Sequence record: PP738762.1
Strand: one strand, 5' to 3'
Source: Klebsiella phage vB_KpnM_Wolf_ER13
DNA: 64,000 nucleotides
A program made the position numbers and the translations under genes. Of this stretch, positions 52,170-52,505 are shown in pieces (the stretch's first letter is position 1; each line of letters begins with the position of its first letter). The notes below the pieces were generated by a model. That model worked only from the letters and a program-made list of their open reading frames with translations, was not told the origin of the DNA and did no database searches.

Positions 52170-52505
52170 GGGAGCACGTTCTTCCGAGGTTCAACTTCTT
52201 TCGACAGTTCTTTCGGTTGTAGCTCCCGCAAGCCCCTAAGGGTACGATTAAACTCTTATCTGTTGCACACCGTTAGCTTAAAGGTTCCGGGTCTGATTTC
52301 TCAGGGATAAGATATACACCGATGGATGTATAGGCCTTGAGGCGTACTCCCGATTGGCCATCGCCTCGGGGTAGCATGCACTTGCCGTTTATTTCTAGCT
52401 GCACTTTGGTAGCAAATCACCGTTGGTTTCGGATGTTTTACGTGGGGATAACCAACAACGTCCACATCATACGTTACCCATGCGTACACATGGTGGGCGT
52501 ACAAA
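52170..52505 (-). other. GC-rich structured non-coding region (candidate ncRNA or structured leader)
   Basis: About 49% GC by hand count, against AT-rich flanks. No ORF without stops in the transcribed orientation. Several stable hairpins (ATACA-CCGATGGA-TGTAT, GAGGCG...CGCCTC, GGGAGC...GCTCCC). Confidence 0.4.

Follow-up and report, generated by a model that had tools for sequence, protein, structure and literature searches.

The spacer between rIII and gene 30.9

The intergenic spacer between rIII and gene 30.9 was analysed in Klebsiella phage vB_KpnM_Wolf_ER13, within a stretch of 64,000 nucleotides of record PP738762.1, here referred to as the window. The phage is T4-like, of the Jiaodavirus type; a comparison over 1.9 kb gave 98-99% identity with vB_KM5a1-KLB8 and others. 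The segment at 52170-52505 had been described, in an initial annotation, as a single GC-rich, hairpin-dense unit of 335 nt. By comparison with related phages, its main object is a discrete RNA of 147 nt, named the core, which lies within a mosaic of other modules and is very probably a genuine conserved structured RNA. The genes and signals surrounding the spacer are the following:

52871-52878, minus strand: T4 late-promoter consensus TATAAATA, at the end of gene 31 (read from sequence)
52506-52754, minus strand: rIII, lysis-inhibition accessory gene (phrog_1457, E 1.6e-40)
51963-52139, minus strand: gp30.9 homologue, 58 aa, rich in Lys and Arg (phrog_1427, E 2.2e-33)
51927-51958, minus strand: intrinsic terminator, a strong hairpin followed by a T-run, 3' of 30.9; the sole terminator-like site in 51700-53300

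The phrog matches agree with the flanking genes initially named, and the GC content, first put at about 49% in an AT-rich genome, is indeed 0.491, against 0.397 across the window. The standard deviation among windows of 336 nt is 0.033, and only 0.97% of them match the segment, which is thus in the top 1%. The sole stretch of higher GC (27400-27700, plus strand, maximum 0.518) belongs to the gene of the gp23-like major capsid protein (27265-28824). No frame is open throughout: each of the three minus-strand frames is interrupted, as had been observed, by 2-7 stops, and each plus-strand frame by 3-6; the open reading frames (ORFs) of at least 60 aa overlap either each other or rIII.

No sigma-70-like promoter was found on the minus strand of the spacer, and neither a terminator nor a minus-strand promoter was found between TATAAATA and the terminator located past 30.9. 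For this reason the simplest reading of the spacer is that of an untranslated stretch inside one rIII-30.9 transcript on the minus strand. The TATAAATA site is probably the start of this late transcript; a late promoter is annotated at the equivalent position in phage SA21RB. As a description, the term "long leader" used initially is appropriate, the segment being the untranslated stretch upstream of gene 30.9.

Fold and covariation of the core RNA

The core was delimited by using a covariance model (R1), the RNAalifold consensus of 22 distinct core sequences, and counts of paired positions. Its elements are listed below, in the order in which they are transcribed wherever the helices allow it.

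52247-52393, minus strand: core RNA, 147 nt
52387-52391 with 52249-52253, minus strand: P1, closing stem
52384-52386 (GGC) with 52333-52335 (GCC), minus strand: P2
52342-52375, minus strand: P3 arm
52358-52363, minus strand: L3, hexaloop CGAUGG at the tip of the P3 arm, kissing-loop partner
52313-52332, minus strand: P4
52320-52325, minus strand: L4, hexaloop CCAUCG at the tip of P4, kissing-loop partner
52306-52312 with 52254-52260, minus strand: P5
52293-52304, minus strand: P6, with a loop that is mostly GAAA
52267-52292, minus strand: P7
52261-52266, minus strand: J7/5, GCAACA

In the consensus, P1, P2, P4 and P5 meet in a four-way junction that contains no unpaired nucleotides. Between P2 and P3 lies a conserved internal loop, AAGUGCAU, whose general form is AAGnGCAU, while the P5 arm carries a three-way sub-domain (P6, P7 and the GCAACA of J7/5) with about 30 invariant nucleotides. 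R1 finds the core as a single copy in the window, with a score of 181.3 bits and an E value of 8.6e-40.

In order to evaluate the fold, 29 distinct core sequences were arranged in an alignment, A4. The whole fold comprises 49 pairs, and 99.0% of the cells are paired. Changes on both sides are found in 28 of the 49 pairs, compared with 9.1 +/- 1.7 in shuffled alignments and 3-7 in slid controls; this comparison, which the initial annotation had proposed as a check, strongly supports its suggestion of a structured non-coding RNA. With a MAFFT alignment, 98.4% of cells are paired and both-side changes are seen in 19 of 44 pairs (6.8 +/- 1.4 shuffled, 2-6 in slid controls). R1 also recovers, with 106 bits, a divergent member in Yersinia phage fHe-Yen9-01, where compensatory changes occur in the otherwise invariant P2 (GGU/ACC) and in P7 (A-U for G-C). 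P1 varies in sequence by lineage and its pairing is always kept; sequence conservation of the core reaches into the helices. G-U pairs occupy 56 cells of A4, such as the U-G found in 26 of 29 sequences at columns 75/82 and the G-U found in 10 at columns 29/45. Since these cells would be C-A mismatches on the opposite strand, the functional strand is taken to be that of the genes.

The tips of the P3 and P4 arms provide a further contact. L3 and L4 are fully complementary and change together, occurring as CGAUGG/CCAUCG, UGAUGG/CCAUCA, CUAUGG/CCAUAG and CAAUGA/UCAUUG. Within the 29 sequences of A4, the resulting 6-bp kissing helix is paired in 98.9% of cells and shows both-side changes in 3 of its 6 pairs; column pair 36/81, for example, is CG in 18 sequences, UA in 10 and UG in 1. 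The kissing helix was absent from the model that built the alignment.

Two of the hairpins initially listed fall within the core. The one bounded by ATACA and TGTAT exists, is conserved and covaries, corresponding to P4, with its limits at 52313-52332 and not 52312-52329. The GAGGCG/CGCCTC stem is located exactly as first reported, at 52339-52367, but does not hold as an evolutionarily supported fold: 93.5% of cells are pairable, hardly above the 91.4% of shuffles, and the stem competes both with the covarying helix P3b and with the kissing loop. In phage PEi20 a change at G27 is compensated in P3b and not in this stem.

A conserved protein-coding frame, named at the outset as the finding that would speak against an RNA, was not observed: no frame is open across the core homologues, each frame containing 1-5 stops in all 29 distinct homologues, which also differ by indels of 1-9 nt. 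A 43-aa ORF starting with GTG (52273-52404) is open in the window and in SA21RB, and is stopped by a GGCCAA to GGCTAA change in at least 10 of 22 variants. ORFs named "hypothetical protein" are annotated over the core in phage Roth01 (L002 in our numbering, 1897-2028) and in several other GenBank records; being broken in other genera, they are probably spurious.

Distribution of the core and organisation of the spacer

A blastn search with the spacer matched 414 phage records. The core is found in more than 400 genomes of enterobacterial T4-like phages and in one unrelated phage, belonging to the Grimontviridae. Its 135-nt centre is about 94% identical in T4-like phages of Escherichia, Shigella and Yersinia, despite differing flanks. 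When the window is compared with Tequatrovirus, Moonvirus, Enterobacter phage id4496 and Edwardsiella phage PEi20, the core without P1 shows 94-97% identity, whereas for the same genus pairs rIII is only 72-75% identical and 30.9 70-88%. The initial suggestion of a decayed remnant is rejected, because the core is better conserved than the flanking rIII and its stem substitutions are compensatory. A viral contig of 92.9 kb, IMGVR_UViG_3300045988_066482 (L012/L048), carries a core identical to that of the window, together with a 100% identical 30.9 protein.

Outside phages, 5,426 E. coli genomes and 72,556 plasmids were searched by BLAST with the core, and none gave a match. An exact-motif scan of one genome for each of 185,579 bacterial and archaeal species returned only a chance match, in a GC-rich Rubrivivax sequence; a motif scan of metagenomes returned, apart from this same chance match, only T4-like phage contigs, and an additional viral scan a single chance match, in a terminase gene.

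The core is present or absent as a unit. Clean indels located just outside P1 distinguish T4, which has "GA" where ime09-type phages have about 155 nt; phiR1-RT, without the core, from fHe-Yen9-01, with it; and PKM.Hi.22.6, without the core, from PKM.Lu.22.1, with it, the latter two differing by 148 nt. No direct repeats are visible at the borders of the three indels. Position also varies: the core lies between the rIII stop and module A in Moonvirus, Karamvirus and ime09-type phages, on the other side of A in Jiaodavirus and Serratia phage PS2, and, depending on the genus, before or after modules A, B and D. That P1 varies but always pairs indicates evolution in place, together with exchange by recombination.

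The remaining modules were defined by reading about 25 spacers side by side. On this comparison the spacer is a mosaic of predicted, independently folding conserved RNA modules, whose order and presence vary; in the window the order is H, A, B, core, D, E and F.

52471-52500, minus strand: module H, two-tier hairpin (stem, CCCA, stem, UGUACG loop, stem, (G/A)UAA, stem)
52422-52471, minus strand: module A, H-type pseudoknot (S1 AUGUGG/CCACGU, S2 GUUGGUU/AACCAAC, A-rich loop 3, GUAAAACAUCCGA)
52398-52421, minus strand: module B, hairpin with a bulged U (N-GC-U-AC / loop / GU-GC-N')
52229-52245, minus strand: module D, GUACCC-UUA-GGGGCUUG, a small hairpin followed by GCUUG
52170-52227, minus strand: module E, three-tier hairpin GGGAGC...GCUCCC
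52134-52169, minus strand: module F, UCUCC...GGAAGA pairing (read from sequence)

In module H all 10 stem pairs are kept in five sequence variants from four lineages (window type, L038, L057, L079 and L058), and one C to U change gives a G-U pair on the minus strand; a pattern search found one copy in the window and no further copy above chance. Module A is contained in every T4-like spacer read, T4 included. Its alignment is imperfect because of bulges, with 81.6% of cells paired (67.1% in shuffles, 37-55% in slid controls), both-side changes in 37 cells (14.8 in shuffles), and a covariation score of 0.403 against 0.151. The outermost pair of module B covaries by lineage, being U-A, C-G or A-U, and the module is common to both PKM phages of the Grimontviridae. 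Module D, compared by reading, is kept across T4-like spacers at a variable position relative to the core.

Module E is the GGGAGC...GCTCCC hairpin of the initial annotation, which had placed it at 52179-52237. It is nearly identical in phages of Klebsiella (window), Serratia (PS2) and Enterobacter (PG7) and similar in Citrobacter phage CF1; different stem-loops take its place in other lineages. T4 had been said to have nothing comparable between the two genes. In fact it has a spacer of 244 nt, in which modules A, D and F are present and a different stem-loop stands at the place of module E; the core, B and H are missing.

The pairing of module F, which T4 retains as UUUUC/GAGAA, can mask the purine-rich ribosome-binding stretch just 5' of the 30.9 start codon (52137-52139), and may in this way influence translation of 30.9. 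In many database entries (P0001 among them) gp30.9 is given as 68 aa, from an ATG at 52169; T4-type phages do not conserve this extension (52140-52169), which falls within module F, a structured element, and the conserved start is that of the 58-aa form, at 52139. The 80 homologues found are T4-like phage proteins wherever the source is named. The gp30.9 query itself yielded no Pfam domain and no PDB relative, a Pfam domain being carried by one short metagenomic fragment among the homologues. The UniRef name of one homologue (P0006), "1,4-alpha-glucan branching enzyme", is an evident misnaming.

A further module, G, of about 55 nt (CUAUCAYGCGUCAG..AAGGUUAKCUGU..), occupies the site of the core in L059 and L063, and occurs also in L065 and L066. 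In Tequatrovirus this site lies between CTCTTGAATGT and ATGATGACG, where ime09-type phages have the core. The outer stem of module G covaries (GCUCUA/UAGAGC in L065), and L059 retains a piece of the 5' strand of the core's P1.

The Grimontviridae phage PKM.Lu.22.1 has a 76-kb genome unrelated to T4, and the centre of its core is 79.5% identical. Here the core sits between a phrog_6599 gene and a sigma-factor gene, upstream of the latter. An intrinsic terminator follows about 40 nt 3' of the core, ahead of the sigma-factor gene, and is found in PKM.Hi.22.6 as well; 5' of the core a TTGACG-N17-TTAAAT site was noted by eye, its -10 element being inside the inserted segment. The two genomes (L073-L076), of 76 kb each, are 96-99% identical over most of their length and differ mainly in mobile elements. 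PKM.Lu.22.1 has two HNH-type endonuclease ORFs (about 43.8-44.2 kb and 52.3-52.8 kb), and PKM.Hi.22.6 a DNA polymerase split by an intron-like insert (45.8-46.4 kb), an endonuclease VII-like ORF (54.2-54.5 kb) and a 139-aa ORF (40.3-40.7 kb). In the comparison of the whole genomes no protein gene was found to travel with the core, only HNH endonucleases, the intron and small ORFs being involved; the window has no homologue of any of the differing ORFs.

The leader of the PKM sigma-factor gene (L009/L047) is formed by module B, GGCUUGA, a hairpin and AUGGAAUGUAUG-AUGGCUAA, and matches the 30.9 leader of T4-like phages. The match extends into the first codons, ATGGCTAA, and includes a GGA-containing hairpin. 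From these matches, it looks like a portable leader common to unrelated phages. The CsrA consensus obtained by systematic evolution of ligands by exponential enrichment (SELEX) is RUACARGGAUGU, and the PKM leader hairpin, GUACAUGGAAUGUAU, resembles it.

Two other observations concern the surroundings of the spacer. Between gene 31 and rIII (52755-52870, minus strand) GC is also relatively high, 0.43-0.44, with inverted repeats (GGUGGA..UCCACC, CCGAGC..) and a hairpin, CCUCAUUUGAGG, over the ribosome-binding site of rIII; this may be another structured leader. Many Klebsiella relatives contain 1.0-1.5 kb of extra DNA inside the stretch matching 51400-53300, which the window does not have; in Roth01 it is located downstream of 30.9 and contains two additional ORFs of about 160-170 aa.

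Relation to known RNAs and possible roles

The Rfam scan initially recommended did not identify a known family: at the gathering threshold, none of the 4227 models of Rfam 15, which cover riboswitches, ribozymes, group I introns, SRP, 6S and Y-like RNAs among others, matched anywhere in the window. At E values up to 10, only chance matches to small nucleolar RNAs and small RNAs (sRNAs) were obtained in 51800-53000, and only an 8-nt fragment match in a 171-nt slice. ARAGORN found no tRNA or tmRNA in the window. There are no tandem repeats in 51900-52900, such as the repeats of about 36 nt that make up a ToxI or pseudo-ToxI array, and the core has neither terminal direct repeats nor a second copy in the window. 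Its one terminal inverted repeat, P1, covaries as an RNA helix, at variance with a miniature inverted-repeat transposable element or an insertion sequence; an independent sRNA gene is likewise not indicated in the window, the spacer having no promoter or terminator of its own.

Some local likenesses were tried and discarded. A resemblance to the SAM-I riboswitch (CUUAUC...ACCCGGAACC...GGUGUGCAAC...GAUAAG) has no covariance-model support, and one to helix 27 of 16S rRNA (GGGAGUACG..CAAGG) is not conserved among variants. An 11-nt tetraloop receptor at the P2/P3 internal loop was set aside, its 3' strand being variable and the P6 loop not always GNRA. A pseudoknot through a relocated GGCC motif, suggested by phage EcS1, is contradicted by fHe-Yen9-01, which supports P2.

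The aptamers of purine and lysine riboswitches, as well as some ribozymes, are organised by a distal loop-loop contact. The core has in common with these riboswitches a multi-helix junction, a Watson-Crick kissing loop between neighbouring arms, invariant unpaired nucleotides in junction and internal loop, covarying helices with variable tips, and a sense position in a 5' leader. It differs in having no Rfam riboswitch match at E values up to 10, no adjacent expression platform and no conserved alternative pairing, and in being an optional cassette with changing neighbours. With the tRNA cloverleaf and tRNA-like structures it shares a four-way junction, a terminal closing stem and a tertiary contact between two arms, but it is 147 nt long, lacks T-loop and D-loop sequences, has a three-way junction as its fourth arm, and joins arms 2 and 3 instead of the D and T arms.

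The PeSL elements of T4-type phages, attributed to Arbiol et al. 2010, are reportedly mobile regulatory cassettes made of an early promoter and one stem-loop, flanking variable ORFs at many loci. They resemble the core as short non-coding stem-loop cassettes shuffled among T4-type genomes by recombination; the core, however, has no promoter, occurs once in 64 kb and adopts a complex fold. HK022 put and Bacillus EAR are processive antiterminator RNAs, put consisting of two simple hairpins. Like them, the core is a structured RNA in a nascent transcript, upstream of terminators and at a distance whose exact value would be unimportant; there is no similarity in sequence or structure.

Comparable too are the orphan structured RNA motifs of phage and bacterial intergenic regions (PMC5737381 and PMC10690425, for instance), which are also conserved, covarying intergenic RNAs found by sequence comparison and GC-rich in AT-rich genomes; the core differs from them in being absent from Rfam 15. 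No description of the core was found in the literature searched by gene names, taxa, topic and sequence, nor any occurrence of the 16-mer GCTAACGGTGTGCAAC, although unnamed bulk lists of PMC10690425 may still include it. A new orphan structured RNA family is the nearest honest label for the core.

As to its role, the account towards which we lean, without holding it firmly, combines a structured modular spacer with an autonomous core domain. The core would be a self-folding recognition domain, aptamer-like in principle, that either forms part of the rIII-30.9 mRNA or is cut out of it. Its partner, a host macromolecule or a small molecule, would be one that is conserved across Enterobacteriaceae. 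The core would act independently of its immediate neighbours, being exchanged or lost by phages as an accessory cassette through recombination in the spacer. The recognition mechanism itself is a tentative proposal from comparative sequence data, for which the balance falls a little on the negative side. The partner is not expected to be a protein specific to T4-like phages, because a Grimontviridae phage also has the core; given this sharing and the conservation of the helices, something common to enterobacterial hosts, or a small molecule, would most likely be recognised.

Several points weigh against this account. A4 was fitted to the covariance model and thus leans to it, for all helices except the kissing loop. 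The set is dominated by close relatives, mostly at least 80% identical, so that the number of independent substitution events is modest, and the shuffle tests ignore phylogeny. The minimum free energy is not significantly below that of shuffled sequences (z -1.2 for the core, -1.3 for the whole spacer); as single-sequence folding energy is ordinary, the statement that the RNA is more structured than chance rests on comparison and not on thermodynamics. Part of the very high core identity between genera could be due to recent horizontal exchange and not to constraint. The core is dispensable in T4, phiR1-RT and PKM.Hi.22.6, and any function is therefore accessory. Finally, its role may be purely in cis.

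A role of this kind would be that of a classical cis-acting riboswitch or protein-binding leader, sensing a ligand and controlling the downstream gene, 30.9 or, in PKM.Lu.22.1, the sigma factor, at the level of translation or termination. This is unlikely. In its favour, the core is always in sense orientation, 100-260 nt upstream of an ORF; the junction and kissing loop, with conserved unpaired nucleotides and covarying helices, are typical of aptamers; the PKM.Lu.22.1 terminator lies between core and gene; and module F can cover the ribosome-binding site of 30.9. It counts against this reading that there is no fixed expression platform. What intervenes between core and start codon depends on the genus (modules A, B, D or others), and the leader, with its terminator and module F, is unchanged where the core is missing, in T4, phiR1-RT and PKM.Hi.22.6. 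A 12-nt complementarity (52385-52396/52160-52171) was considered as a switch pairing and rejected, since, judged by eye, other lineages do not have it; among alternative pairings with P1 none was found that is conserved, and the Rfam search up to E 10 offered no riboswitch.

Somewhat less likely again is an accessory anti-defence or host-takeover RNA, a decoy or sponge for a host protein or immune signal that would be freed by processing. The sporadic, cassette-like distribution among close relatives agrees with it, as do the sharing between unrelated lytic phage families infecting Enterobacteriaceae, the absence from the host genomes and plasmids searched, the extreme constraint on the sequence, helices included, and the exchange of modules in the spacer, with G replacing the core in L059 and L063. 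The core does not resemble any known defence-related RNA, however, and the two PKM phages, differing in homing endonucleases and an intron only, reveal no linked gene.

An RNA that modifies RNA polymerase in cis for terminator read-through, in the manner of HK022 put, is improbable. The core is orientation-specific and precedes an intrinsic terminator, by about 290 nt in the window and about 40 nt in PKM.Lu.22.1; variable intervening sequence is tolerated, as for a processive mechanism, and the host core polymerase could be a partner common to T4-like and Grimontviridae phages. Apart from the lack of resemblance to put RNAs, the same terminators are present in relatives without the core, and such RNAs have a low prior. 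A self-cleaving ribozyme, or a processing signal separating the rIII and 30.9 messages, is marginally more improbable still: a compact junction with a tertiary contact is typical of small ribozymes and the core lies between two cistrons, but no Rfam 15 ribozyme matched at E values up to 10, and the same cistron arrangement exists without this optional element.

Selfish or neutral DNA, meaning the decayed remnant of an acquired element, a mobile element of miniature size or a site acting as DNA (an endonuclease target or recombination hotspot, for example), would fit the deviating GC, the clean presence or absence in three lineages and the homing-endonuclease genes and intron by which the PKM phages mainly differ. 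It is very improbable in view of a conservation far above that of the flanking genes, the compensatory substitutions and strand-specific G-U pairs, a P1 that evolves in place with its pairing kept, and the absence of terminal direct repeats, tandem repeats or a second copy in the window. A gene for a small protein, for instance the 43-aa ORF, has a negligible chance, since against the annotations in Roth01 and other records, and the frame open in the window and SA21RB, stand the stops and indels described above.

Few viruses have been studied as thoroughly as the T4-like phages, whose genomes have a high gene density. In this genetically tractable model system, a 147-nt fold with a four-way junction and a kissing loop would add a structured RNA family, whose notable properties are a conservation above that of neighbouring genes, a presence in more than 400 genomes, and gain and loss as a unit. 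For database annotation, the finding corrects spurious "hypothetical proteins" placed over RNA in several records. The natural pairs with and without the core (ime09-type phages and T4, fHe-Yen9-01 and phiR1-RT, PKM.Lu.22.1 and PKM.Hi.22.6) are ready controls. Behaviour as a cassette, together with sharing with an unrelated family, points to an accessory function aimed at a common feature of enterobacterial hosts. A bolder possibility, to be regarded as doubtful, is that the core is an aptamer cassette which unrelated lytic enterobacterial phages exchange in order to neutralise or exploit a conserved host factor. If true, the core might be, for example, a decoy or sponge for a defence protein or immune nucleotide, or a reprogrammer of RNA polymerase, and the rIII-30.9 spacer would be an "RNA accessory island", in which modules H, A, B, the core, G and others are collected and shuffled.

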